Shown piece by piece: positions 1,709-14,519 of a stretch of DNA of 21,378 bases. Under the pieces are notes generated by a model. It did not search any database and was not told the DNA's origin. It saw only the letters and a program-made list of their open reading frames with translations. Both the position numbers and the translations under genes were made by a program. Each line of letters starts with the position of its first letter. Position 1 is the first letter of the stretch. The DNA comes from a virus: UHGV virus genome UHGV-0079970. One strand, 5' to 3'.

Positions 1709-1785
1709 TGGCGCGTTGTACTGGATTCGAACCAGTGACCGATTGCTTAGAAGGCAATTGCTCTGTCCGGCTGAGCTAACAACGC
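1709..1785 (-). tRNA. tRNA-Arg (anticodon TCT)
   Basis: Minus-strand 77 nt, GCGTTGTTAGCTCAGCCGGACAGAGCAATTGCCTTCTAAGCAATCGGTCACTGGTTCGAATCCAGTACAACGCGCCA: 7-bp acceptor stem, D arm, anticodon loop CTTCTAA, T arm GGTTCGAAT, encoded CCA. Confidence 0.85.
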
Positions 1786-1798
1786 ATGATGCAGATAA

Positions 1799-1875
1799 TG
1801 GACCGCCATCGGGGACTTGAACCCCGCGCAACCAGCTTCGAAGGCTGGCGCTCTTTCCTGATGAGCTAATGGCGG
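1799..1875 (-). tRNA. tRNA-Arg (anticodon TCG)
   Basis: Minus-strand 77 nt, CCGCCATTAGCTCATCAGGAAAGAGCGCCAGCCTTCGAAGCTGGTTGCGCGGGGTTCAAGTCCCCGATGGCGGTCCA: cloverleaf with C1-G72 acceptor pair, anticodon loop CTTCGAA, T loop TTCAAGT, encoded CCA. Confidence 0.75.
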
Positions 1876-1882
1876 TATGTGA

Positions 1883-1958
1883 TGGTGGCCCTTGCTGGAT
1901 TTGAACCAGCGACCTGGCGATTATGAGTCGCTCGCTCTCACCACTGAGCTAAAGGGCC
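1883..1958 (-). tRNA. tRNA with CAT anticodon, tRNA-Ile2 (lysidine) type / Met
   Basis: Minus-strand 76 nt, GGCCCTTTAGCTCAGTGGTGAGAGCGAGCGACTCATAATCGCCAGGTCGCTGGTTCAAATCCAGCAAGGGCCACCA; anticodon loop CTCATAA; closely resembles E. coli tRNA-Ile2 as I recall it. Confidence 0.8.
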
Positions 1959-2007: not shown

Positions 2008-3057
2008 TCAAACGATTAAATCCTGAACTTCCCTGACTGTCTGCTCAAAACGTCCGGTCTCCAGTTCAACGCCAATCGCACGACGCCCGAGCGCCAGTGC
2101 AGCTTTTACCGTTGAACCTGAGCCCATAAAAAAATCTGCAACCAGGTCTCCCGGACGACTGCTTGCGCTGATTATCTGCTGCAGCATTTCTGCCGGTTTT
2201 TCGCACGGATGTTTCCCGGGATAGAACTGCACCGGTTTATGTGTCCACACATCCGTGTACGGCACCTGCGCCGTCACACCAAAATACCGCCGCAGATGCT
2301 TATATTCACTATGCAGCTCCACATACTGCCGGTTCAGTGACGTATACGTATCCACCAGCTGGTGGTGGGGCTTTTCCAGTTCACCGCGCTGATGTTTCTC
2401 TTCTGCCACCCGGGCAAACAGCGACTGTAATTTCAGATAATCGCTTTCGTTCGGTAGCTGCCACTGACTGGCACTGAACCAGTGCGACACCATGTTTTTC
2501 TTTCCTGTGGCATCTGCAATCTGTTTTGCCGTTATCCCCAGGGCAGCTCGCGCATCACGAAAGTAAGAAATCAGCGGGGCCATCACATGCTGTTTCAGTG
2601 CACTGCCCTTCGCCGCATACCCGGCATCTTTCGGACGATACGGCCCCTGATAATGTTCCGCGAACAGAATGCGCTCTGTGGCGGGGAAATACGCCCGCAG
2701 GCTTTCCTTGTTGCATCCGTTCCAGCGTCCGGACGGCTTCGCCCAGATAATATGGTTCAGCACACTGAAGCGTTCACGCATCATGATTTCGATATCAGAT
2801 GCCAGGCGATGACCACAGAACAGGTAAAGACTTCCGGCAGGTTTCAGCACCCGCCAGAACTGCGCCAGACACTGGTCCAGCCACTTCAGGTAATCATCGT
2901 CGCCCTTCCACTGGTTATCCCAGCCCTCGGGTTTCACTTTAAAGTATGGCGGGTCTGTGACTATAAGATCGACAGAGTTTTCCGGTAAGGTCTGGATAAA
3001 TTCCAGGCAATCAGCGTTGATTAACTCACAACTGGATATTTTTACAGTATTAGCCAT
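2008..3057 (-). CDS. N6-adenine (or N4-cytosine) DNA methyltransferase, beta-class
   Basis: 349-aa ORF; motif IV LIVTDPPYF near the N-terminus and AdoMet motif FFMGSGST near the C-terminus (order typical of beta-class amino-MTases). Confidence 0.8.
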   Translation of the reverse strand: MANTVKISSCELINADCLEFIQTLPENSVDLIVTDPPYFKVKPEGWDNQWKGDDDYLKWLDQCLAQFWRVLKPAGSLYLFCGHRLASDIEIMMRERFSVLNHIIWAKPSGRWNGCNKESLRAYFPATERILFAEHYQGPYRPKDAGYAAKGSALKQHVMAPLISYFRDARAALGITAKQIADATGKKNMVSHWFSASQWQLPNESDYLKLQSLFARVAEEKHQRGELEKPHHQLVDTYTSLNRQYVELHSEYKHLRRYFGVTAQVPYTDVWTHKPVQFYPGKHPCEKPAEMLQQIISASSRPGDLVADFFMGSGSTVKAALALGRRAIGVELETGRFEQTVREVQDLIV

Positions 3058-3193: not shown

Positions 3194-3221
3194 AAATAAA
3201 AAAGCCTTCACTGAGGAAGGC
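3194..3221 (-). terminator. Rho-independent terminator (minus strand) at the 3' end of the small wHTH gene
   Basis: Minus-strand 6-bp stem GCCTTC / GAAGGC (plus coords 3216-3221 / 3204-3209), 6-nt loop, then TTTTTTATTT; the stop codon of the small ORF lies inside the stem. Confidence 0.5.
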
Positions 3222-3405
3222 GTCTGTAACAACCGAACTGATAATCTGCCAGACCCGCCATAACAAGCTGGGTCAGTATTAACTGGCAACGTTCGCGTGA
3301 AAGGTAAGTATTCTGCGCAATTTCCCCGACGGTCGCCGGTTCGGTGACGCTTAATTCATTAAACACCACTCTGGCAGTTTCGGTCATATCCTGCTGTTTT
3401 AGCAT
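3208..3405 (-). CDS. Small winged-helix-like DNA-binding protein (65 aa), hypothetical regulator
   Basis: ATG at 3405 preceded by AAGGGA; product MLKQQDMTETARVVFNELSVTEPATVGEIAQNTYLSRERCQLILTQLVMAGLADYQ... has a helix-turn-helix-like pattern (VGEIAQNTYLSRERCQLILTQL). The ORF track extends it to 3642, which I consider unlikely. Transcribed divergently from the DUF262 operon. Confidence 0.4.
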   Translation of the reverse strand: MLKQQDMTETARVVFNELSVTEPATVGEIAQNTYLSRERCQLILTQLVMAGLADYQFGCYRRLPQ

Positions 3406-3528
3406 GTCTTTTTCCCTTTTCTGGTTAACGTGACATACCAATAACTCTTGTCTGAAAAGCCAGCAAGCTGAAAGACCGGTATTCGCAACCACCAGCACGT
3501 TTAACGTACTGCGCCGTTTTTCGGACAC

Positions 3529-3548
3529 AAAAAACCGCCTGGCGGCGG
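3529..3548 (-). terminator. Possible minus-strand terminator upstream of the small wHTH gene
   Basis: 5-bp GC stem (plus 3535-3539 CCGCC / 3544-3548 GGCGG), 4-nt loop, followed on the minus strand by T6 (plus 3529-3534 A6). Short stem, so weak. Confidence 0.3.
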
Positions 3549-3597
3549 GTTTAAGCTGTGTGGCGTAGTAACCACTCTTAACACGATATAATATTTT

Positions 3598-3626
3598 TTG
3601 CGTACGCGTTATAGTTTTCTTACAAT
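3598..3626 (+). promoter_or_regulatory. Candidate sigma70 promoter for the DUF262-HEPN operon
   Basis: -35 TTGCGT (3598-3603), 17-bp spacer, -10 TACAAT (3621-3626), in an AT-rich intergenic region; SD AAGGAA (3646-3651) 7 nt before the ATG at 3659. A separate perfect TATAAT at 3587-3592 lacks a -35. Confidence 0.35.
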
Positions 3627-3658
3627 CTATTTCCAACTCCAATTAAAGGAACAGTGAT

Positions 3659-4816
3659 ATGACCACACTCAAAGAACTCAAAGAAGAGCTTGCTCAGATT
3701 CAAGATGAAAACGCGAAAAATAGAAAAAAAGCTGAAATTGCAGCCTTGGTCACTTCTGCCGACAACGAGATTAGGCTTGCTCAGAGAAATATTGGATACA
3801 ACGTACGTGAATGGACCGTTGAATTAATTGTACAAAAGTATGGCAATAATCTTGAAACTGACAAAAACGAACTTTTTATTCCTGATTATCAACGCGATTA
3901 CAAATGGGATATCAAAACAGCCTCTCGATTCATCGAAAGTATATTATTAGATTTTCCAATCCCGTACCTCTACATCTCCGACGTATTTAATGAAGATCCT
4001 GAGTTGGATGGTCGTGTAGAAATTATTGACGGTTCACAAAGGATTCGCTCAATTTACTACTTTTGGAACAATCAGTTTGAATTGAAAGACTTAAAAGAAC
4101 TCAAAAGTTTAGAGGGCTTCAAATTTTCAGATCTTTTGGCTAGCCGCCAGAGGCGATTTTTAAGGGCATCACTAAGATTTATTGAATTGAAAGGTGATGT
4201 TGAGGAGCAACATAGAAGAGATTTATTCGAAAGAATAAATTCAGGTGTTAAGAGACTGGAAGCGATGGAGGTTAGACATGGTTCAGATGCGGCCACTTCA
4301 ATTTTCTATAGGGATGTTGTGACTCCTTGCTCAACAAATCCACTTTTCGCTAGTCTAGCTCCATTATCAGACCGGAAACGTTCGAATGGCGATCATCGTG
4401 AGTTAGTTTTGAGATTTTTTGCATACTTAAATGATTTAGAAAATTATAAGGGTTATGTCGCTCCTTTTATTGACAATTATCTTAATGTTCAGGCCGAAAG
4501 GGTCACACAACAAGATGTAGACAAATTTAAACATGATTTTGAAAGCATGCTTGCTTTTGTAGATGCTCATTTCCCTATGGGGTTTAAAAAGACACCAACA
4601 AGCAAAACCACCCCCCGTGCTAGATACGAAGCCATAGCAGTGGGAACTGCTCTTGCCTTAAAAGCCAATCCACATCTACAGGCTCCGGTTATTCCTGTAG
4701 GAGACTGGCTGTTTGGGGAGGAATTTGAAACCATAGTTACTGCTGATAGTGCCAACAACACCAGCCAACTCAAAAACAGAATATTTTATGTCAAAGATAA
4801 ATTATTAGGAATGTAA
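3659..4816 (+). CDS. DUF262 / ParB-like (GmrSD N-terminal type) domain protein, 385 aa; no recognisable DUF1524/HNH nuclease domain
   Basis: Motifs DYQRDYKW and IIDGSQRIRS (DGQQR-type DUF262 signature), later LFERINSGVKRLEAME; N-terminal ~60-aa coiled-coil-like extension. Strong RBS. AT-rich (~37-41% GC in hand-counted 100-nt samples). Confidence 0.75.
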   Translation: MTTLKELKEELAQIQDENAKNRKKAEIAALVTSADNEIRLAQRNIGYNVREWTVELIVQKYGNNLETDKNELFIPDYQRDYKWDIKTASRFIESILLDFPIPYLYISDVFNEDPELDGRVEIIDGSQRIRSIYYFWNNQFELKDLKELKSLEGFKFSDLLASRQRRFLRASLRFIELKGDVEEQHRRDLFERINSGVKRLEAMEVRHGSDAATSIFYRDVVTPCSTNPLFASLAPLSDRKRSNGDHRELVLRFFAYLNDLENYKGYVAPFIDNYLNVQAERVTQQDVDKFKHDFESMLAFVDAHFPMGFKKTPTSKTTPRARYEAIAVGTALALKANPHLQAPVIPVGDWLFGEEFETIVTADSANNTSQLKNRIFYVKDKLLGM

Positions 4817-4818
4817 CT

Positions 4819-5508
4819 ATGAGTTTGATTGATTTAAGAGATGAATACGAAGAAAGAGCAAGAGATATTATGGAATTGCTTTCTCTTGCGTCATCTTTAG
4901 AGGCTCAGACTCAGCAGTTAGATCAGCAAACGCATAAAGATGAAATAGAATCAAATACCCTTAGGGTTAACATTTTAAAATCATCCGTGCACATGATGCT
5001 GTACAATCAGGTTGAAAACACTGCCAGAGGATGCATTGAGTCAATTTATGACCATTTGCAAGATAATGAAGTAAATTACGCATCACTCAGGGAGAAATTC
5101 CAAGTAAATATCTTGCACCGTATCATTTCAGATAATGAATCGGGAAAATCTCTTTATCAAAAAATTGGTTCCGATATATCTAAAAGGATCATTTCAGCCT
5201 CATTAAACATACGTAAAGAATTCAATGGTAATGTTTGCAAGTCTGTATTGCACAAAATAACACAAGCTTACGGAATAACTGTTGCAAACTCACCAGAGTG
5301 TAGAAATGGTGTTGACTTAGATTTACTTAAAGATATCAGAAATGAGCTGGCACATGGAAGTACCAGCTTTTCTAAAAAAGGTCAAATAGACCCTTTAGAA
5401 GAAGTCAAATCGAGGTCAGAAAGAATTGATCTATATTTGCGTTTATTAATCAACTCAACAGAAAATTATATTACCTCTAACGGGTATTTATCCCCTCAAC
5501 ATGTCTGA
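4819..5508 (+). CDS. HEPN-motif protein (predicted RNase-type effector), 229 aa
   Basis: ATG 2 nt after the upstream stop (translational coupling) with AGGAA SD; canonical R-[N]-x3-H motif RNELAH (5338-5355) in the C-terminal third; rest mostly helical by composition. Confidence 0.6.
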   Translation: MSLIDLRDEYEERARDIMELLSLASSLEAQTQQLDQQTHKDEIESNTLRVNILKSSVHMMLYNQVENTARGCIESIYDHLQDNEVNYASLREKFQVNILHRIISDNESGKSLYQKIGSDISKRIISASLNIRKEFNGNVCKSVLHKITQAYGITVANSPECRNGVDLDLLKDIRNELAHGSTSFSKKGQIDPLEEVKSRSERIDLYLRLLINSTENYITSNGYLSPQHV

Positions 5509-6517
5509 TAAATGTTTCCCCTATTATCTGACCAATTATAGGGGGAACAGCATTTCCAATCATTGTCCCCAATTTTTGGAATGAAAAAGGCGTCTCCTTG
5601 TCAAGGAATTTATAATCCATTGGAAAGGATTGCAAAATCGCAGCTTCACGCAAAGTTATGGCGCGATTTTGCTCAGGATGGCCAAATCGTCCATTTCCAT
5701 ATCCATAACACTGGGTAGTTATCGTAGGGCTAGTATCGTCCCAAACCATCCGTCCATAAACGCTTTTATAGGTAGCACCTGAATTCTTTTTATGACAGTC
5801 TGCTCTAATTTCTTCAGGCCAGTCATCCCACGTACCACCAGGTAAAGAATGCATGATTCGTTTAAGATTGATATCCATCAATTTAGGCGAACGATGCAAG
5901 GGATCGCTTTCCAGCTTCTCACCTGCCCCTACTTTTGGCAACCTACCAATAGCATCCTTAACAGTAACTTTACGGCTAACTTTTTTTTGATCAAGGCTGA
6001 TCGGCCCCAATTGGGAACCAATTAGAATTAATCTACGTCTATTTTGAGGTAAGCCATACTCAGAACATCTTACAACGTCGTACCACAAATGATATCCAAG
6101 AGTCTTTAATGCACTAACAAACCCTTCAAAAACCTTATGGTTTCTAAGTTGAGGAACATTCTCCATCGTCACAAGCTCTGGCATGACATCACTTACAAGC
6201 CTTTGAAACTCATATAACAAACGCCACTTTGTATCGTCTTTACGGCTATTTGGATTACGATACTTGGAAAACGGTTGGCAAGGAGCACATCCAGCAAGCA
6301 ATCTAATATTTCCTTCCTTGAACATAGCAGACACATCGCAGGATTGCAGTTCTGTAACTGACTGATTAATGAACTGCGTTAAAGGATTATTGCTCTCAAT
6401 AGCAAAACGGCAGGATTCATCAATATCAATACCATGAGAAACCTCAATCCCGGCTTTTTTTAGCCCAAAAGTTAAGCCCCCCGCACCACAAAAAATGTCT
6501 ACTGCCTGAATGTTCAC
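5477..6517 (-). CDS. C5-cytosine DNA methyltransferase (Dcm/type II M family), 346 aa
   Basis: Motif I DIFCGAGGLTFG, catalytic PCQ in GCAPCQPFS, ENV, QNRRRL, GNAV. Start is GTG at 6517 with GGAG 6 nt upstream. 3' end overlaps the HEPN gene tail-to-tail by 32 bp. Confidence 0.9.
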   Translation of the reverse strand: MNIQAVDIFCGAGGLTFGLKKAGIEVSHGIDIDESCRFAIESNNPLTQFINQSVTELQSCDVSAMFKEGNIRLLAGCAPCQPFSKYRNPNSRKDDTKWRLLYEFQRLVSDVMPELVTMENVPQLRNHKVFEGFVSALKTLGYHLWYDVVRCSEYGLPQNRRRLILIGSQLGPISLDQKKVSRKVTVKDAIGRLPKVGAGEKLESDPLHRSPKLMDINLKRIMHSLPGGTWDDWPEEIRADCHKKNSGATYKSVYGRMVWDDTSPTITTQCYGYGNGRFGHPEQNRAITLREAAILQSFPMDYKFLDKETPFSFQKLGTMIGNAVPPIIGQIIGETFIRHVEGINTR

Positions 6518-6580
6518 AAGATTCTCCGTTACTTTATCCTGGTATTATATACACATAAAAGTTGGGAAAGTAGAACGATT

Positions 6581-6949
6581 TTACATAGAACTTAAGTCAT
6601 TGTAGTAAATGAAAAATGACAAGCAGCCATCAATAAACCCCATTGCTGTTTGCATCTCTTTCCGTATTGTTCCATCTGAACATTTCCGTTTTTTAGCAAT
6701 AGCGCGTAATGAGATACCAATAACAAAGTGAGCAATGATCAACTCATACTCTTCGGGTTTATACTTTCGCAACCGAGCCACACAACCGTCTATCATGATA
6801 CCTTCGTCATCATCACACTGGAGACGTGACTTTTTACCGTGTGGTAAAAGCCCCTTGAAGCCTGCTGCTATCGGCTGCCAGTCCACACCACTGTTATCTG
6901 CTGCAGCCCAGGCCCCCCAACGATCTAAAACTTCGTACATATCACGCAT
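6581..6949 (-). CDS. Q: Late-gene antiterminator Q-like protein (QuuD/Q-type), 122 aa
   Basis: N-terminus MRDMYEVLDRWGAWAA... and Cys cluster (C-x-D-D-D...GC...CSDG) match what I recall of lambdoid Q/QuuD proteins; lies between replication and late-region genes; start overlaps the upstream stop (TGATG). Confidence 0.65.
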   Translation of the reverse strand: MRDMYEVLDRWGAWAAADNSGVDWQPIAAGFKGLLPHGKKSRLQCDDDEGIMIDGCVARLRKYKPEEYELIIAHFVIGISLRAIAKKRKCSDGTIRKEMQTAMGFIDGCLSFFIYYNDLSSM

Positions 6950-7206
6950 CAGCGCAGTACCTCCTGCACCAGTTTTTCAAACTTACCAACTCTGGTTTCC
7001 AGCTCTGCCACACAATCCACCAGCTCATCCACTGCTTTTTGTGCACGGTGTTTTGCCTGCATCAGTTCCCTGAGCGCTGGCACCATATCCCGACGAATGG
7101 CATCTTTTGTTACACCTGTTTTTTCCAGTTGTTCCGCCTGCCGCAACATTTCCTGTGCCTGTTTACGTAATTGCTCAGGGGTAAAAGTCATTGTCTGGTT
7201 GTTCAA
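6949..7206 (-). CDS. Hypothetical small coiled-coil protein (nin-region position), 85 aa
   Basis: TTG start at 7206 with GGAG 8 nt upstream, overlapping the DnaB-like stop; translationally coupled to Q. Alternative ATG at 7191 has no SD. Confidence 0.45.
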   Translation of the reverse strand: MNNQTMTFTPEQLRKQAQEMLRQAEQLEKTGVTKDAIRRDMVPALRELMQAKHRAQKAVDELVDCVAELETRVGKFEKLVQEVLR

Positions 7207-8603
7207 AAGAAACGCTCCATCTTACTGCTGTCAGTTCGTTTGTTGCTGTATCTGCGCGGCTGGGGCTGTTGCATTGGTGTGGAAAGAACCCGGGCACTCT
7301 CCTGGTCCACAGGCAGAAAATGTCCGTTATGAAAACGCCGGTAAATGGTCCCGAGCGTGCCATTACGCTGTTTCGTGATGTTGATTTCTGCTATGCCTCT
7401 GGCCTGAGTTTCCGGGTTGTATACCTCCTCCCTGTAAAGCATCAGAATGATGTCGGCATCCGCCTCGATTTCCCCGGAGTTTTTCAGGTCCGAGTTCATT
7501 GGGCGTTTATTGGGTCTGGATTCCACGCCACGGGAGAGCTGGCTCAGAGCAATCAGCGGAAAACCGCCGGATTTTGCCAGGCTTTTAAGTCCCTTTGAGA
7601 TTTCCCCCACAGCAAGGTCGTGACGCCCCGTGCTGCGGGTTTTAATCAGGCCGAGGTAATCGACCACAACCAGCGCCGTTTCCGGATGCTTCATCCGGTG
7701 GTGCTTCGTGGTTGCACATATCTCATCAATGGTCAGGTTTGCCTGGTCCACCATCCAGATATTACGCCCCGTCATTCGTCCCACGCCCTGCGAGAAACGC
7801 GCCCAGTCTTCATCTTCAAAACGGGCAACAGACTTAAGACGGGATACCGGCATTCCACCGGCAGCAGACACCATACGTTCACCAATCTGGATGTTCGCCA
7901 TCTCCATGGTGAACAGAAGCACGCCATGCCCCTGCTCAGTCACCTTGTCGATGATGTCCAGCGCAAGTTCGGTTTTCCCCATCGAAGGACGGGCGGCAAT
8001 GAATACCAGGTCTCCGGGCTCCATACCGCCCGTTTTTGCGTCCAGTTCATCAATACCGGTCATCAGCGCCCTGGATTTCTCCAGTCCCTGATTGCGGCAT
8101 TCAACACGGTCGACCACTTCCGGAAGGACATCATCAATGTGAACCGGCTGAATGACGCCCTTTCCGGTCGACAGTGAGGCCATCATGTTCTGCGCATCCT
8201 TCAGGGCATCCTCGGCTGCTTCACAGGTATACGCATCACGTAAATTCTGTAATGCTTCAGTCAGTGTTTTTTCTGCATCACGCAGTGCGGCATTGCGCCG
8301 CAACGCTGCGACATAGTGCTCCAGTGAAGACTTCACCCAGGTTTTGCGTCCGGTGTCGGTAATCACCGGGGCAAGTTCCGGCATCTCATTGCACAGCAGT
8401 ACGGGGTCAATGACGCCGGATATGCGAGCCTGTCTGCAAATCCCCGCGTAAATATCCCGGTACTGACGCACAAAAAATACATCCGCCGGAAGTGTGGCCA
8501 GAATATCCATCACTTCCGGATCGGCCCCACGCAGAAAAAACGCACCGATGACAGCGCCTTCCAGGTCATCGTTACGCCATGCCGGGGTGTTCTGGCTGGT
8601 CAT
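7203..8603 (-). CDS. Replicative DNA helicase, DnaB family (phage-encoded)
   Basis: 466-aa ORF with Walker A ARPSMGKT, Walker B-like LVVVDYLGL and a RecA-like C-terminal domain; follows the DnaC-like gene with overlapping stop/start. Confidence 0.9.
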   Translation of the reverse strand: MTSQNTPAWRNDDLEGAVIGAFFLRGADPEVMDILATLPADVFFVRQYRDIYAGICRQARISGVIDPVLLCNEMPELAPVITDTGRKTWVKSSLEHYVAALRRNAALRDAEKTLTEALQNLRDAYTCEAAEDALKDAQNMMASLSTGKGVIQPVHIDDVLPEVVDRVECRNQGLEKSRALMTGIDELDAKTGGMEPGDLVFIAARPSMGKTELALDIIDKVTEQGHGVLLFTMEMANIQIGERMVSAAGGMPVSRLKSVARFEDEDWARFSQGVGRMTGRNIWMVDQANLTIDEICATTKHHRMKHPETALVVVDYLGLIKTRSTGRHDLAVGEISKGLKSLAKSGGFPLIALSQLSRGVESRPNKRPMNSDLKNSGEIEADADIILMLYREEVYNPETQARGIAEINITKQRNGTLGTIYRRFHNGHFLPVDQESARVLSTPMQQPQPRRYSNKRTDSSKMERFF

Positions 8604-9499
8604 GCGGCAACACCTCCGATACGAGAACGGTAGCTGGGCCAGTTAAACGACAACCAGTTGCGCCCGCCATCGGTGATCCTGTCGGCAATCCGGGGACTGA
8701 TGAACGCCCACAATTCTTCCGGTGAAAGGTTGCTGATCAGGATAGTTGGCAAAATACCCTCATACCGGGCATTGATAATTTCCTGCAAAATGGCCATTTC
8801 AGCCGCACTGCCAAACTGAACGCCGACTTCGTCGACAATCAGCAAATCCAGTGACGCATAATGCTCAATGACGTCATCCGCTGTTTTTTCACTGTCATTC
8901 CGCCAGCAGTTTTTCACAGCCCGGGTAAGGCGCATCACGTCGGTGATCTCCACACTGGCCAGATAGTTACGGATGATGTGTTTTGCCATTGATACCGCCA
9001 GATGATTTTTCCCGGTACCGCAACTGCCGGTCATAACAAGACTGGTACCGTTCTCCAGCATATCTGGCCAGTTCTCCGCATAGCGGCGACAGGCCGCAAG
9101 ATTTCTGGCTGCGTCAGGATTAACCTCCAGATAATTATCAAACTCGCAGTCCCGAAAACGCAGAGCAATTCCGGCGTTATCAGTCAGTTCTTCCGCCTTG
9201 AGGGACGACAGTTCCATGGTCAAATCACTGGCCTCAGCGATCAAGCAGTCAGGGCAGCATGAAATTTTTTCTCTGTCCTCGCCATTACGATCGATCCACA
9301 CCAGTATATGCGTACGATATTTACCGTGTTTTTCGCAATATCCGCGACCTTCACGCATCAGGCAGGAACGATAAGGCCATGGCTTTTCGCCCTTCTGAGC
9401 AAATGCAATCTCTGCCCGTAACTCATCCATTTCTGCCCGTAACTCATCCATTCGCGCCTGTAGTCTTGTTTGTTTCTCACGTTGGTCAATCGTCATCAT
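8600..9499 (-). CDS. DnaC/IstB-like AAA+ helicase loader
   Basis: Walker A GSCGTGKNHLA, Walker B LLIVDEVG. Probable start is ATG at 9499 (GAGG 8 nt upstream) rather than the GTG at 9508 used in the ORF track. Confidence 0.85.
   Translation of the reverse strand: MMTIDQREKQTRLQARMDELRAEMDELRAEIAFAQKGEKPWPYRSCLMREGRGYCEKHGKYRTHILVWIDRNGEDREKISCCPDCLIAEASDLTMELSSLKAEELTDNAGIALRFRDCEFDNYLEVNPDAARNLAACRRYAENWPDMLENGTSLVMTGSCGTGKNHLAVSMAKHIIRNYLASVEITDVMRLTRAVKNCWRNDSEKTADDVIEHYASLDLLIVDEVGVQFGSAAEMAILQEIINARYEGILPTILISNLSPEELWAFISPRIADRITDGGRNWLSFNWPSYRSRIGGVAA
9411..9452. repeat. Perfect 21-bp tandem duplication inside the DnaC-like gene
   Basis: tctgcccgtaactcatccatt occurs twice in tandem (9411-9431, 9432-9452), encoding MDELRAE-MDELRAE in frame on the minus strand. 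Confidence 0.9.
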
Positions 9500-9509
9500 C
9501 GCTGTCACC

Positions 9510-10496
9510 TCAGAATGTCAATTTGTTACTGGATTTACCGAATTTGTCAGACATGGCTCCCAGGCCAGCCAGGACATCGACCTGTCGCTGTCGCCCACCT
9601 CCGTGAGCGGCTGGCTGTTGCCAGTAATCTTCGAAGTGACGATCGGGTCCAAAGAACGTCGCAGCCTGCTTCACGAACTGTGTGCCGGTATTTCCTGTAG
9701 CACGTACCCAGGCGGCATACCGCTTCACGCCATCAAGCATGGTCTCCGGTTTTATTCCCTCCCTGATACGGGCTTTCCAGGCTTTGAAGGCTGCTGACTT
9801 GGAATTGCCACCAGCACGTTTGGGATATTCCTGCCAGGCCTGTTCAAATTCCGGTGAATATTCCTGTCGGGCAGAACGCGCAGACGCGTCAGCGGATGCA
9901 TCAATAGTGTTTTTAGTCTCCGTTGTAATCTCTGTAGTAATCTCTGTATTTGTATCAACATTCGGCGTATCCCCTGTTCCGTTATGACGTCGGGGGGTGT
10001 TCCGTTTTAACGTAATAGCTGTATCGCTGATTGCATTATTGCTGTTACTTTCTGGCGAAACAGAAGAAGGTGTGGTGATGGCCGCAATTGCCTGTGGGTT
10101 GATCCCGACAAACAAAATATTGCTGCATTTCACCCCATCGAGCATTTCCACCGTGCGTAAATCCAGAGTAATAAACCCTGCATCGCGCAGACGCTTCAGC
10201 GCATCTGCGGTTTCCCTTTTCCCGAAACCAAACTGCTCAGCAAACGCCTGGTAGCTTCTTTGCAGTTTGTCGCCCTGAAAACGCTTGCGATATCCCAGCA
10301 ACGCTCCGGTGTGCTCATCCCTGACCTCTGTCGGGCGGTACCAGTAAACGATCTCTGAAAGCAGAGCGATAGCCGTCGCATCCGGACGCCCACTGGGTAG
10401 TCGAATATATTTCCACCAGTTCGCAGGTGTAACATTGCCGGAAATATTAATTTGACCAATAGCCATAACTTCCGGTGTGGGGGCGTAACGGCTCAT
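9510..10496 (-). CDS. Replication initiator, O-like (phage replisome organiser)
   Basis: 328-aa ORF with AAGGAGG RBS, directly upstream of and coupled to the DnaC/DnaB-like genes; N-terminal domain, low-complexity central linker (TNTEITTEITTETKNT) carrying DNA repeats, C-terminal domain. Family call is by position and architecture. Confidence 0.55.
   Translation of the reverse strand: MSRYAPTPEVMAIGQINISGNVTPANWWKYIRLPSGRPDATAIALLSEIVYWYRPTEVRDEHTGALLGYRKRFQGDKLQRSYQAFAEQFGFGKRETADALKRLRDAGFITLDLRTVEMLDGVKCSNILFVGINPQAIAAITTPSSVSPESNSNNAISDTAITLKRNTPRRHNGTGDTPNVDTNTEITTEITTETKNTIDASADASARSARQEYSPEFEQAWQEYPKRAGGNSKSAAFKAWKARIREGIKPETMLDGVKRYAAWVRATGNTGTQFVKQAATFFGPDRHFEDYWQQPAAHGGGRQRQVDVLAGLGAMSDKFGKSSNKLTF
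9911..9956. repeat. Iteron-like short tandem repeats inside the O-like gene (candidate origin)
   Basis: gtaatctctgta repeated in tandem (9925-9936, 9937-9948) with degenerate flanking copies. Lambda ori lies at the equivalent place within O (established knowledge). Confidence 0.35.
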
Positions 10497-10792
10497 ACAA
10501 CCTCCTTCCGCGGCATGAGAATTGTGTAGCCACGCGCAGGTTGTAGTCTGGCTTTTGCATCAATAGTAAGCGTTGCAATTTTTCGGATATGAAGATAACC
10601 AGCTCTTTCCAGTGCCAGGGTTTCCCTGAATATCGCTTGCTTAGAACAACAGCAGAAATCAGCAAGCACCTGATGATCAATAACTCTCTCGCCTTCACCG
10701 TCTGAAGAACCCGACATCAAAACACGCAACATAATTAGGCGCTGAATCGGGTTATCGAAAGCACATCCGCACACAAACTGAAAACAGTTCAC
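10493..10792 (-). CDS. Hypothetical protein, 99 aa
   Basis: GTG start with GGGAGG 6 nt upstream; stop overlaps the O-like start; part of a chain of coupled genes. Confidence 0.45.
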   Translation of the reverse strand: MNCFQFVCGCAFDNPIQRLIMLRVLMSGSSDGEGERVIDHQVLADFCCCSKQAIFRETLALERAGYLHIRKIATLTIDAKARLQPARGYTILMPRKEVV

Positions 10793-11013
10793 GCCACACC
10801 TCCCAGACGCTTAAACATTTTTCCAGACAGAAATACCGCCAGAGGGTAACTGATGGTGTAGCTACGCCCCTGTAGTTCGCACACGACTTTCTGGCTTTCA
10901 GCGTTGACTAGGCAAACCCGCAGAACGTGACCGTTGCTGGTGGCGAACCACTGCCCCACACGGGGGCAACGGTTGTATCGGTGATACAGGGAATTAACGA
11001 TGTGGCGGATCAT
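10789..11013 (-). CDS. Hypothetical protein, 74 aa
   Basis: ATG with GGAGG 7 nt upstream; stop/start overlaps with both neighbours. Confidence 0.45.
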   Translation of the reverse strand: MIRHIVNSLYHRYNRCPRVGQWFATSNGHVLRVCLVNAESQKVVCELQGRSYTISYPLAVFLSGKMFKRLGGVA

Positions 11014-11204
11014 GGACGCACCTCCGCCGTAGTTACGTATTTAACCGGGCTACCTTTCATTGAGATGGTTTCACACATCTCTGCCGCTTTCAGTTCCGCT
11101 GTTTTTCTGGATTTATAGCGACGGTGCCAGACAGATACATCCGTGCGAACTGATACATCGTTTCTGTATTCCGTAGTGGAGATGATGATTTCGTAACTAA
11201 TCAT
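11010..11204 (-). CDS. Hypothetical protein, 64 aa
   Basis: ATG with AAGGAGG 7 nt upstream; ATGA overlaps with both neighbours. Confidence 0.45.
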   Translation of the reverse strand: MISYEIIISTTEYRNDVSVRTDVSVWHRRYKSRKTAELKAAEMCETISMKGSPVKYVTTAEVRP

Positions 11205-12052
11205 GGGCGAACCTCCTTGTCAGAACCATTCAGCCTGGAATCAACAAGTGCAGCGCCAAAAACAGCATCACCAACACGGTCGTACAGTTTGCTAGCCAGC
11301 GGAGATTCAACGGCCTTAAGCATTGGATAAAGCTGGCTTGTCCAGATTTGATGGATTTCACGCAAATGCAGGTATACGCCTCTGGCGTTTCGTGCGACAG
11401 CTGACATATCAGACGCATCGGCACCTGATAAACTCTTCTCCATCAGGTTAAAGGCGTTGATGTATGCCTCTTTGAACTGGGCAGCACGTTTACCAGTGAA
11501 GCCCATGGCAAGAAACGCAAAACCGTCGCGGGTGATTTGGTAACAAGGGAGTTTGCGGCCTGATGCGTCGGTGTATTCACTTAACACAAAATTGTGTTCA
11601 GTAAATTCAGCGGAACATTCGAGGTTTCTAATTCTATCTAAAACCCGCTCATGCCGTTTAGTAAAGTAATTAGCTACTGCAAGAGATGTGGTGACAACGC
11701 GACCATTGATAATCGTGATTTCAGGGTGAGATTGGGTTGGGAGAGTAGTCATGGTGACAGCCCCTATGTTGAATTCAATGAACTCACCACCAAGGCTTTC
11801 CACGACCATATAGGTGGTGAGACGTACAGGGGTGGAAATACCGGTCAACATAGAACCCGGCCCAACCGAAGTTGGCCCTGCACGCCCCACCATAATTTGG
11901 GTGTAACGATGCTCATGACACGAAAAAACCGCATGAGCGCGGTTGTGCTCTATATTGAATTTCGGGTTTCCACGCCCGGCACCCGCTTTATAAGGTGCCT
12001 GAGCAGTGTAACGTCCCGGAATTGCAGAATCAATATGCTGGTGGCGGATCAT
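11201..12052 (-). CDS. Rha-family phage regulatory protein with an N-terminal extension, 283 aa
   Basis: C-terminal half has Rha-like motifs (SLAVANYFTKRHERVLDRIRNL ... ITRDGFAFLAMGFTGKRAAQFKEAYINAFNLME); N-terminal ~100 aa (IDSAIPGRYT..APYKAGAG..IMVGRAG) is paralogous to the next gene. GGGAGG RBS. Confidence 0.6.
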   Translation of the reverse strand: MIRHQHIDSAIPGRYTAQAPYKAGAGRGNPKFNIEHNRAHAVFSCHEHRYTQIMVGRAGPTSVGPGSMLTGISTPVRLTTYMVVESLGGEFIEFNIGAVTMTTLPTQSHPEITIINGRVVTTSLAVANYFTKRHERVLDRIRNLECSAEFTEHNFVLSEYTDASGRKLPCYQITRDGFAFLAMGFTGKRAAQFKEAYINAFNLMEKSLSGADASDMSAVARNARGVYLHLREIHQIWTSQLYPMLKAVESPLASKLYDRVGDAVFGAALVDSRLNGSDKEVRP

Positions 12053-12711
12053 AGGTGCACCTCCCGTTGATTACGACGGAACGCGGAGTGACCCTGGACG
12101 GTTTCAGCCTCATGGAATGCTTCAATACAGCTCTCGTAGTACCGCATTGTGCGCAGACTTAACCCAAGCTGAAGCATCATCAGACCATCAAGGGTGATGT
12201 AATAACCACGCAGGGAGTCACCGTAGATGTGATAAGTACCCGGTATGAAATTGCGGGTAAAAAACTCGCGTGAGCAGTTCAGATACTCGATTTTGTCAAC
12301 GATGTTCTGGTGCATGCGCTTGAAATGGCAGGCAACATGCAGGGAGAAAATAACGGCCTTGCCGTTGACGACTTCGATTTTTAGGAATGGGGAAGTTAGG
12401 ACAGTAGCCATGATGGCAGCCTCCGTTGACAGTGAAAAACTTCCACCACCGGAAACGCCAATTTCACTGGTGGTGAACTGGACGGGGTTGGCGTAACCGG
12501 CGTCAACGGAGACCGGCGCACCTTTCGGTGCCCCCGCCCAGCCCACCATAATCTGGATGTGAGCAAATGCGGACGATAAAAAAGACGCTGGCGCGTCATA
12601 CATCGCCGTTGACAATTTCAGGACGCCAATCCCGGCACCCGCTTTATAAGGTGCGGAGACAGTGTAACGTCCCGAAATTGCAGAATCAATATTTGGTCTT
12701 GAAATGATCAT
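12049..12711 (-). CDS. Paralog of the preceding gene, Rha-like (more diverged), 220 aa
   Basis: Aligns along its length with the 11201-12052 product (MIISRPNIDSAISGRYTVSAPYKAGAG ... IMVGWAG ... FSLHVACHFKRMHQNIVDKIEYL ... ITLDGLMMLQLG). No obvious SD at its ATG. Confidence 0.5.
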   Translation of the reverse strand: MIISRPNIDSAISGRYTVSAPYKAGAGIGVLKLSTAMYDAPASFLSSAFAHIQIMVGWAGAPKGAPVSVDAGYANPVQFTTSEIGVSGGGSFSLSTEAAIMATVLTSPFLKIEVVNGKAVIFSLHVACHFKRMHQNIVDKIEYLNCSREFFTRNFIPGTYHIYGDSLRGYYITLDGLMMLQLGLSLRTMRYYESCIEAFHEAETVQGHSAFRRNQREVHL

Positions 12712-13751: not shown

Positions 13752-13862
13752 TCTTTAGTCTCACACCAGATACTTTGTTATTCAACGATGTTAACCACAG
13801 GAATCCAAAGTATCAAGAAATTCTGTTACTTTAGTATCAACAGCCATGAGAGGAGAAGAAAA
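13752..13862. promoter_or_regulatory. Immunity-region intergenic with repeated operator-like motifs (OR-like)
   Basis: GATACTTTG (13769-13777) and its reverse complement CAAAGTATC (13806-13814) form a perfect 9-bp inverted repeat; a further AGTATCAA copy at 13833-13840; the same motif recurs downstream of cI. Confidence 0.4.
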
Positions 13863-14519
13863 ATGAAGTCTTTAGGTGAACGTCTCATCAACGCACGGCA
13901 AAAAGCTGGGTTAACACAAGATGCGTTGGCTAAAAAAGCTGGGATCACCAGAGTTGCAATCAGTAAAGCCGAGCAAGGCCTTACAAAAAGTTTCAACGGT
14001 GACACCCTTTTTAAAGTTGCAGCTGCACTGCGGTGTTCACCGCAGTGGCTTCAGAACGGAGATGAAAAAGATAAGCATTGGGAAAATAATGTTAAGAGCT
14101 GCCCACAGAGAGACACAGCACACTCTTACCCTGTAATTAACTGGGTTCAGGCAGGATTATTCGCAACTTCTGGTGATGACTACAACATGTATGATCAGGA
14201 TAATTGGAGGCATTCTGTAAAATACGCTGGTGAGAGGGGGTTCTGGCTGGAAGTGCACGGAGACTCAATGACTTCGCCCGTAGGAATAACATTTCCTGAA
14301 GGAATGTCGATCCTTGTCAACCCAGATAAAGAAGTTTTTTCAGGGTGTTACGTCATCGCCAGAAAAAAATCTACCAATGAAGCAACATTCAAAAAATATA
14401 TTTCTGACATGGGAAAGGCGTTTCTAAAGCCCCTTAATCCACAATATCCAATCATAGAAATGGACAATGATTGCGAAATAGTAGGTGTTGTGGTTGATGC
14501 CAGGTGGGATATTTTCTGA
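13863..14519 (+). CDS. cI: CI-type prophage repressor (N-terminal HTH, C-terminal S24 LexA-like autopeptidase)
   Basis: ATG at 13863 with GAGAGGAG SD (the ORF track's 13788 start is an upstream extension). HTH LTQDALAKKAGITRVAISKAEQG; catalytic Ser in GDSM and Lys in FKK; candidate Ala-Gly cleavage site in VQAGLF. C-terminal domain closely resembles lambda CI as I recall it. Confidence 0.9.
   Translation: MKSLGERLINARQKAGLTQDALAKKAGITRVAISKAEQGLTKSFNGDTLFKVAAALRCSPQWLQNGDEKDKHWENNVKSCPQRDTAHSYPVINWVQAGLFATSGDDYNMYDQDNWRHSVKYAGERGFWLEVHGDSMTSPVGITFPEGMSILVNPDKEVFSGCYVIARKKSTNEATFKKYISDMGKAFLKPLNPQYPIIEMDNDCEIVGVVVDARWDIF

Follow-up and report, generated by a model that had tools for sequence, protein, structure and literature searches.

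This analysis concerns a three-gene cassette carried by UHGV virus genome UHGV-0079970, a DNA stretch of 21,378 nucleotides (hereafter the window) that forms part of a lambdoid prophage of Escherichia coli akin to phiP27 and the Stx phages. The cassette comprises a DUF262 gene (gene A), a gene for a stand-alone HEPN protein (gene B) just downstream of it, and a convergent gene for a C5 cytosine DNA methyltransferase, or methylase (gene M). As judged from its sequence, the cassette is real and is probably a phage defense module, whose architecture was described in 2013 and is not new. We regard it as likely that the locus is a defense module built on A and B, and we give slightly less than an even chance to a prophage-borne cassette of three genes endowed with a self-marking mechanism resembling that of restriction-modification (R-M) systems. 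The complete scheme, i.e., an R-M-type system with an RNase as its "restriction" arm, in which 5-methylcytosine would be the self mark, the DUF262 NTPase would detect unmarked DNA, and the HEPN protein would shut down translation, is put forward tentatively and stands on the unlikely side.

The DUF262 and HEPN proteins

Protein A matches the Pfam family PF03235 (GmrSD_N) over residues 69-206 (E = 1.1e-25, 91 bits for a cut-off of 33), and its translation contains the strings IPDYQRDYKWD and EIIDGSQRIRS, the motifs PDYQR and DGxQR being each found in 79 of 80 protein A homologues. The Pfam search gave no match past residue 206 and no DUF1524, and the C-terminal half of the protein A model gave no HNH or His-Me structural match. 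This agrees with the preliminary description of this DNA, made from the letters and a list of open reading frames (ORFs), in which a DUF262 protein of 385 amino acids with these motifs and without a DUF1524/His-Me region had been noticed. In the AlphaFold model of protein A (50 homologues, pLDDT 85), a long helix at the N terminus is followed by an alpha/beta domain of ParB/Srx-like type, and the C-terminal half is all-helical. Together, the predicted fold and the motifs point to an NTPase-type DUF262 protein as in GmrSD, BrxU, and SspE, and protein A would act as a sensor of DNA or of its modification rather than as a DNase. In the PADLOC library, its best match is NsnA of the Menshen system (5.6e-46, 155 bits, residues 16-313); the PD-T4-2_A profile also matches (4.3e-27, 93 bits, residues 72-336, profile positions 52-313 of 363), and the N terminus gives weaker matches to SspE, HEC-05/06, and Orf5. 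A PDB search with the protein A profile returned a weak DUF262 match (20yv, E = 7e-4) and nothing else. RefSeq names the protein "DUF262 domain-containing protein," and NCBIfam has no model matching protein A or protein B.

Gene A stops at a TAA codon (4814-4816) and gene B starts with the ATG at 4819, leaving a gap of 2 nt. Protein B scores above the cut-offs of two HEPN families of Pfam, namely, PF18737 HEPN_MAE_28990 (E = 3.8e-16, 60.4 bits for a cut-off of 26.8) and PF18735 HEPN_RiboL-PSP (6.7e-8, 33 bits for 28), and contains the string DIRNELAHGS. The Rx4H motif within this string, R174-N-E-L-A-H179, is invariant in two homologue alignments, and its generalized form R-N-x-L-[AST]-H is retained by 72 of the 77 protein B homologues from the locus survey described below. 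Protein B displays the helical fold and the Rx4-6H motif by which RNases of the HEPN superfamily are recognized; its model is of medium confidence (pLDDT 69) and poor over residues 86-139, and a PDB search with the protein B profile gave no match. RefSeq names it "MAE_28990/MAE_18760 family HEPN-like nuclease." The preliminary description had likewise placed a gene with the HEPN motif RNELAH 2 nt after the stop of the first, and both of its assignments, DUF262 for the first protein and HEPN for the second, were recovered by the Pfam profile searches. HEPN domains with an Rx4-6H motif are RNases in most characterized cases and serve as abortive-infection or toxin effectors (PMC3710099). Protein B is predicted to be an active RNase and the effector of the cassette, and the earlier suggestion that the DNase of GmrSD-type enzymes is replaced here by an RNase-type effector in a defense module appears plausible.

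Clustering at 50% identity divides the HEPN family of protein B into 1274 clusters with E <= 1e-3, and 673 with E <= 1e-10; nearly all of its members are stand-alone proteins of ~220-250 amino acids. A shorter version of the HEPN protein (P0019-P0021; 192 vs 229 amino acids) is encoded by some E. coli genomes; it is ~90% identical with 84% coverage and may correspond to an alternative start call or to a truncated allele. In several cyanobacterial loci, extra partial HEPN-like ORFs lie just 3' of gene B (L031 7166-8646, L032 7834-8043, L065 7806-8114, and L070 7804-8073), which may represent pieces of the effector gene or its tandem duplication.

Linkage of the pair with a C5 methylase

One genome per species was scanned with an alignment of protein A homologues, which yielded 80 loci, and the ORFs called in these loci were searched with profiles from the window proteins. 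The loci come from Gammaproteobacteria, Planctomycetes, Bacteroidales, Lentisphaerae, one deltaproteobacterial metagenome-assembled genome, and many Cyanobacteria. A homologue of gene B lies immediately downstream of gene A in 77 of the 80 loci, the three others being two contig ends and one decayed locus, and the commonest spacing is an overlap of 4 nt (25 loci) or 1 nt (16 loci). Chance adjacency of A and B is rejected by this synteny.

A C5 methylase adjoins the pair in 38-40 of the loci whose flanks could be judged. Clear orthologues of M account for 33 of these adjacent methylases, and 28 genes have the arrangement of the window, i.e., they converge with B from its downstream side and in most cases overlap its 3' end (by 32 nt between B and M of the window); the linkage with M orthologues spans Gammaproteobacteria, Planctomycetes, Bacteroidales, and Cyanobacteria. 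The methylase-less loci have no conserved third gene, their neighbors being housekeeping genes. In a neighbor-joining tree of A, they fall almost all in one derived cyanobacterial clade, and all deeper branches, including that of the window, are methylase linked. Since the absence of the methylase is concentrated in this single derived clade, the A-B-M trio looks ancestral. Moreover, the pairwise identities of the three proteins are correlated (Spearman coefficients of 0.92 for A-B, 0.70 for A-M, and 0.68 for B-M), with B as the fastest-evolving component (mean pairwise identity of 44% vs 57% for A and 58% for M). By these comparisons of sequences, the C5 methylase is an ancestral, coevolving third component in the clade of the window. 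The treatment of the methylase as an optional neighbor in the preliminary description did not hold.

Gene M encodes a full-length C5 methylase, as indicated by matches to PF00145 (Pfam, 9.5e-54), to TIGR00675 dcm, and to the PADLOC profiles MTase_II (1.6e-87) and DrmMII (4e-85), and RefSeq names its product "DNA cytosine methyltransferase." The nearest solved structures, DNMT1, 3g7u, and M.HaeIII, are related to it through the catalytic motifs alone. With regard to a classical type II R-M system, M is present but the cassette lacks any gene of restriction endonuclease type (PD-(D/E)XK, HNH, GIY-YIG, or PLD), and neither a restriction endonuclease nor another conserved neighbor that could partner the methylase was found across the surveyed loci. 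M would be the self-marking component of the cassette, and methylation would protect rather than trigger.

Among 5426 complete E. coli genomes, A-B and M were found in the same number, 107, and at 108 places each, their co-occurrence being exact. The carriers, ST131 strains among them, represent ~2% of complete E. coli genomes and hold two alleles, one at 99% identity or more to the window (73 genomes) and the other at ~85% for A-B and ~91% for M (34 genomes). This second allele lies in a different, decayed prophage (L087), directly downstream of a Q gene and beside holin and lysis genes. A terminator hairpin, the three cassette genes, and Q form a block that the window (3530-6951) shares with this decayed prophage (6878-10297), at 86.6% identity over 3426 nt. 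The homology with phiP27 ends at 3589 and resumes at 6903. In phiP27 (L082), the corresponding position is filled by a gene for a GIY-YIG nuclease (3622-4851); on this comparison, the slot between Q and the late/lysis region is a cargo hotspot (moron slot). Moreover, the minus-strand hairpin at 3535-3548 travels with Q, which suggests that the cassette sits between Q and the cognate pR'/tR' region.

The trio is also carried by the P2-like phage P24B2 (Peduovirus, L083), at the P2 hotspot beside gene A of P2, and by nine Moraxella Mcat phages. The Klebsiella P2-like phage ST16-OXA48phi5.4 (L085 2360-4263) has a more distant pair, DUF262 with a RiboL-PSP-type HEPN, and the Escherichia phage vB_EcoM-689R6 (L086 2450-4161) has a distant DUF262 gene with a partner that gives no Pfam match, both without a methylase. 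The partner genes of these two phages encode ~216-220 amino acids, and one pair is located between tail genes and the other next to an integrase gene.

Prophage context and gene map

The features of the window are collected in Table 1. Over positions 3600-6550, the G+C content drops from ~52% to ~38%. The minus-strand terminator-like hairpin mentioned above was detected by a terminator scan within the leader of the cassette and is followed by a T run. A TATAAT sequence recognized by eye at ~3584-3589, upstream of gene A, probably belongs to the promoter region of this gene; a sigma-70 scan gave no strong plus-strand promoter upstream of gene A.

Table 1. Cassette genes and surrounding prophage features, with their positions in the window
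Feature	Position	Strand	Remark
Gene A, DUF262 protein, 385 aa	3659-4816	+	Pfam PF03235 GmrSD_N
Gene B, stand-alone HEPN protein, 229 aa	4819-5508	+	Pfam PF18737 HEPN_MAE_28990
Gene M, C5 cytosine DNA methyltransferase, 346 aa	5477-6517	-	Pfam, TIGR00675, PADLOC
Intergenic leader of the cassette	3530-3658	.	Inherited together with the cassette
Antiterminator Q	6581-6949	-	Pfam PF06530, 3.3e-47; context, not a functional part of the cassette
Three tRNA genes	1709-1958	-	Arg-TCT, Arg-TCG, one with a CAT anticodon
N6/N4 DNA methylase	2008-3057	-	Conserved with phiP27 and Stx phages
Small TrmB-like gene	3209-3406	-	RefSeq, 65 aa; "TrmB family" in phiP27
Rha/Ash regulators and replication genes (O-like, DnaC-like, DnaB)	7203-12711	-	
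cI-like LexA/S24 repressor	13788-14519	+	
Integrase	20230-21363	+	

Genes A and B share the orientation of the cI-like repressor gene, opposite to lytic transcription, and hence their expression in the lysogen is probable. M, on the lytic strand, comes after Q, and this arrangement suggests that induction of the prophage may result in more methylase and less A-B.

The prophage has two DNA methylases of different classes, the C5 enzyme M and an N6/N4 enzyme, the latter encoded beside the tRNA genes. The tRNA with the CAT anticodon is assigned to Met by ARAGORN and to Ile by RefSeq. The 144-amino-acid ORF at 3208-3642 (minus strand) of the mechanical ORF list is overextended, RefSeq keeping 3209-3406 alone, and its upstream part crosses the terminator-like hairpin and the promoter region of gene A.

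Known relatives and candidate mechanisms

The neighborhood of a MAE_28990 HEPN gene with a ParB nuclease and a DNA methylase was listed in Table 1 of Anantharaman, Makarova, Burroughs, Koonin, and Aravind (2013, Biol Direct 8:15; PMC3710099), a purely computational survey in which the ParB protein was called a nuclease (PMC3710099). The window cassette has the three features of that system, i.e., the same HEPN family (PF18737) with its Rx4H motif, an adjacent ParB-superfamily gene, and an adjacent DNA methylase, without any structural difference; only the reading of the ParB protein differs, NTPase type here vs nuclease there. By its gene and domain content, the window cassette belongs to this predicted system. 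The model used by the 2013 survey for the MAE_28990 family is PrrC-EcoprrI (PMC3710099), where a HEPN RNase, the anticodon nuclease PrrC, is likewise linked to R-M in its genetics and function, its gene lying in a type I R-M locus; PrrC, however, has its own ABC-ATPase domain and lies within hsdMSR, in contrast to the DUF262 protein and the single C5 methylase of the window. The preliminary description had been unable to match the pair to a named system; it figures in the 2013 table (PMC3710099), both of its proteins are named by RefSeq, and it has a tested relative, PD-T4-2 (PMC9519451).

PD-T4-2, described by Vassallo et al. (2022) in E. coli ECOR65, consists of a DUF262 gene and a HEPN gene and defends against T4 in the native strain and in K-12 (PMC9519451). 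As in the window, it is a two-gene E. coli operon in the order DUF262 then HEPN, and its HEPN protein gives matches to the same two Pfam families as protein B, the HHpred probabilities for PD-T4-2B being 97.8% for HEPN_RiboL-PSP and 96.9% for HEPN_MAE_28990 (PMC9519451). The PD-T4-2_A profile, however, reaches only 93 bits on protein A and is outscored by NsnA at 155 bits, which indicates homology rather than clear family membership. The two PD-T4-2 ORFs, moreover, occupy 1540 bp vs 1850 bp here and were cloned without a methylase. The PADLOC PD-T4-2_B profile gave no match at E <= 1 to protein B nor to the B proteins of P24B2, Mcat32, and the Klebsiella phage. As compared by profile scores, the window pair is only distantly related to PD-T4-2. 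The pairs of P24B2, Klebsiella ST16-OXA48phi5.4, and vB_EcoM-689R6 were also rejected as PD-T4-2 orthologues, with 49-118 bits for PD-T4-2_A and no match for PD-T4-2_B. DefenseFinder reported "PD-T4-2" in a Citrobacter koseri isolate (PMC13268207), and a C. koseri A/B pair (P0071/P0018) is 84% and 77% identical to that of the window; this program may already label the window family as PD-T4-2, though the PADLOC PD-T4-2_B profile does not match protein B.

Menshen (NsnABC; Millman 2022; Liu et al. NAR 2025, PMC12065111) resembles the cassette through protein A, which is NsnA-like and shares the same architecture of ParB-DUF262 followed by a helical "ParBDB" domain. This architecture is the proposed DNA sensor of Menshen, whose effectors are mostly RNases (PMC12065111). 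The cassette differs from Menshen in having neither the NsnB ABC-ATPase gene nor the NsnC inPIN-effector gene and in the HEPN gene that directly follows A. With only a HEPN gene and a convergent methylase gene downstream, and NsnB and NsnC missing, identity with Menshen was rejected. Protein A also shares the N-terminal DUF262 domain of the type IV enzymes GmrSD and BrxU. Unlike in these enzymes, there is no DUF1524 His-Me nuclease fused or nearby, the partner is of HEPN RNase type, and a methylase is linked; the preliminary reading of the pair as a split GmrSD was therefore abandoned, DUF1524 being found neither in the two proteins nor elsewhere in the cassette. In comparison with SspABCD-SspE and DndBCDE-DndI, the mark would here be 5-methylcytosine instead of phosphorothioate, and the effector would be a separate HEPN protein instead of a fused DUF1524 nickase. 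DARNA, which is PD-T7-3, is unrelated and was rejected as a relative.

The DUF262 domain has been described as having NTPase and sensor functions and as controlling a catalytic domain distinct from itself; the cutting of modified DNA is under its control in GmrSD and BrxU, and in SspE it senses the phosphorothioate mark of the host itself and licenses nicking (PMC10952713; PMC12065111). We propose a model in which M would methylate the DNA of the host and of the prophage, thus providing the self mark. Protein A, with its NTPase-type DUF262 domain and a helical domain of DNA-binding type and without a nuclease, would read the DNA or its modification state through an NTP-driven switch, and protein B, made in translational and stoichiometric coupling with A, would be the effector. 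When A meets DNA devoid of the mark, B would cleave RNA (tRNA, mRNA, or rRNA), and this cleavage would stop translation and lead to an arrest resembling abortive infection. The RNA target of B and the defense phenotype of the cassette are themselves predictions. The self-marking scheme is favored because of the ancestral linkage of the methylase, the lack of a DNase gene, and the known roles of DUF262 and HEPN proteins; in particular, the methylase linkage argues for an R-M-like or Ssp-like logic and against a type IV system that would sense nothing but modified phage DNA.

Several points nevertheless weigh against this scheme. Most characterized DUF262 systems sense modified DNA, not unmodified DNA. 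The survey contains 29 loci whose flanks are adequate and in which no methylase adjoins the pair, so that the pair can exist without a linked M, although a methylase might act there in trans. In P24B2, one frameshift near residue 227 interrupts the methylase gene (L083 2021-3035), with A and B intact, reflecting either a sequencing error or a natural A-B pair without a working methylase. Neither the structural relatives of M nor its matches in the defense library point to a target site. A clone of the two PD-T4-2 genes is active in the absence of a methylase (PMC9519451). Finally, literature searches with the RefSeq accessions, with MAE_28990/PF18737, and with the combination of DUF262, HEPN, methyltransferase, and prophage retrieved no experimental work on the cassette, and no paper was found in them on the mechanism of PD-T4-2 or of the cassette family.

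Some of these points are those on which a type IV-like alternative relies, as the preliminary description had envisaged: A would sense modified phage DNA (hydroxymethylcytosine or glucosyl-hydroxymethylcytosine) or a nucleotide signal and switch on B, and the methylase would be functionally separate, e.g., a phage anti-restriction methylase traveling with the cassette. The DUF262 domains of GmrSD, BrxU, and SspE do recognize modified DNA, PD-T4-2 was selected on T4, whose DNA contains glucosyl-hydroxymethylcytosine, and needs no methylase, and the 29 related loci without an adjacent methylase are in line with this view. It is nonetheless decidedly unlikely in our opinion, given that an orthologous C5 methylase is linked to the pair from Gammaproteobacteria and Planctomycetes to Bacteroidales and Cyanobacteria, often through overlapping convergent 3' ends, and covaries with A and B, with a perfect co-occurrence in E. 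coli; a hitchhiking gene would not be expected to remain linked over such distances. What the methylase linkage points to is instead a self-marking logic, R-M-like or Ssp-like, and the modified-DNA sensing proposed earlier loses ground accordingly.

The methylase would keep a protective role in the two-tier R-M system of Anantharaman et al. (2013), in which A would be a ParB-fold DNase cutting the unmethylated invader, M would protect self, and B would be a back-up RNase of PrrC type, kept silent by A until the restriction arm is blocked or overwhelmed. We consider this explanation unlikely: DNA cutting in GmrSD, BrxU, and SspE is done by DUF1524, DUF262 being the NTPase (PMC10952713), and protein A carries the DGxQR motif for NTP binding, without a recognizable nuclease domain. 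The tight translational coupling of A and B, moreover, fits a sensor-effector complex at least as well. Another view would make the cassette an addiction or toxin-antitoxin-like module that mainly stabilizes the prophage block rather than excluding phages, B being a toxin neutralized by A or by the methylation due to M. This appears very improbable, as the related PD-T4-2 pair confers measurable phage defense, the moron and hotspot positions in lambdoid and P2-like phages are typical of defense cargo, and there is no MNT-type antitoxin.

Our analysis thus draws attention to a DUF262 and HEPN architecture that has a single validated representative, PD-T4-2, and whose methylase-linked form is common, occurs in many phyla, and is carried by temperate phages. 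How DUF262 systems associated with a methylase work is a question also raised by the Menshen study (PMC12065111). The dedicated C5 methylase gives clean genetic access to what is read by DUF262 sensors and to whether methylation protects or triggers. The cassette allows one to ask, moreover, whether an RNase effector can be driven by R-M-like self-marking. Should the methylase prove irrelevant, the cassette would be another PD-T4-2-like abortive system. If it is indeed an R-M-type system with an RNase arm, methylation-based discrimination between self and nonself would lead to a halt of translation rather than to the cutting of DNA.

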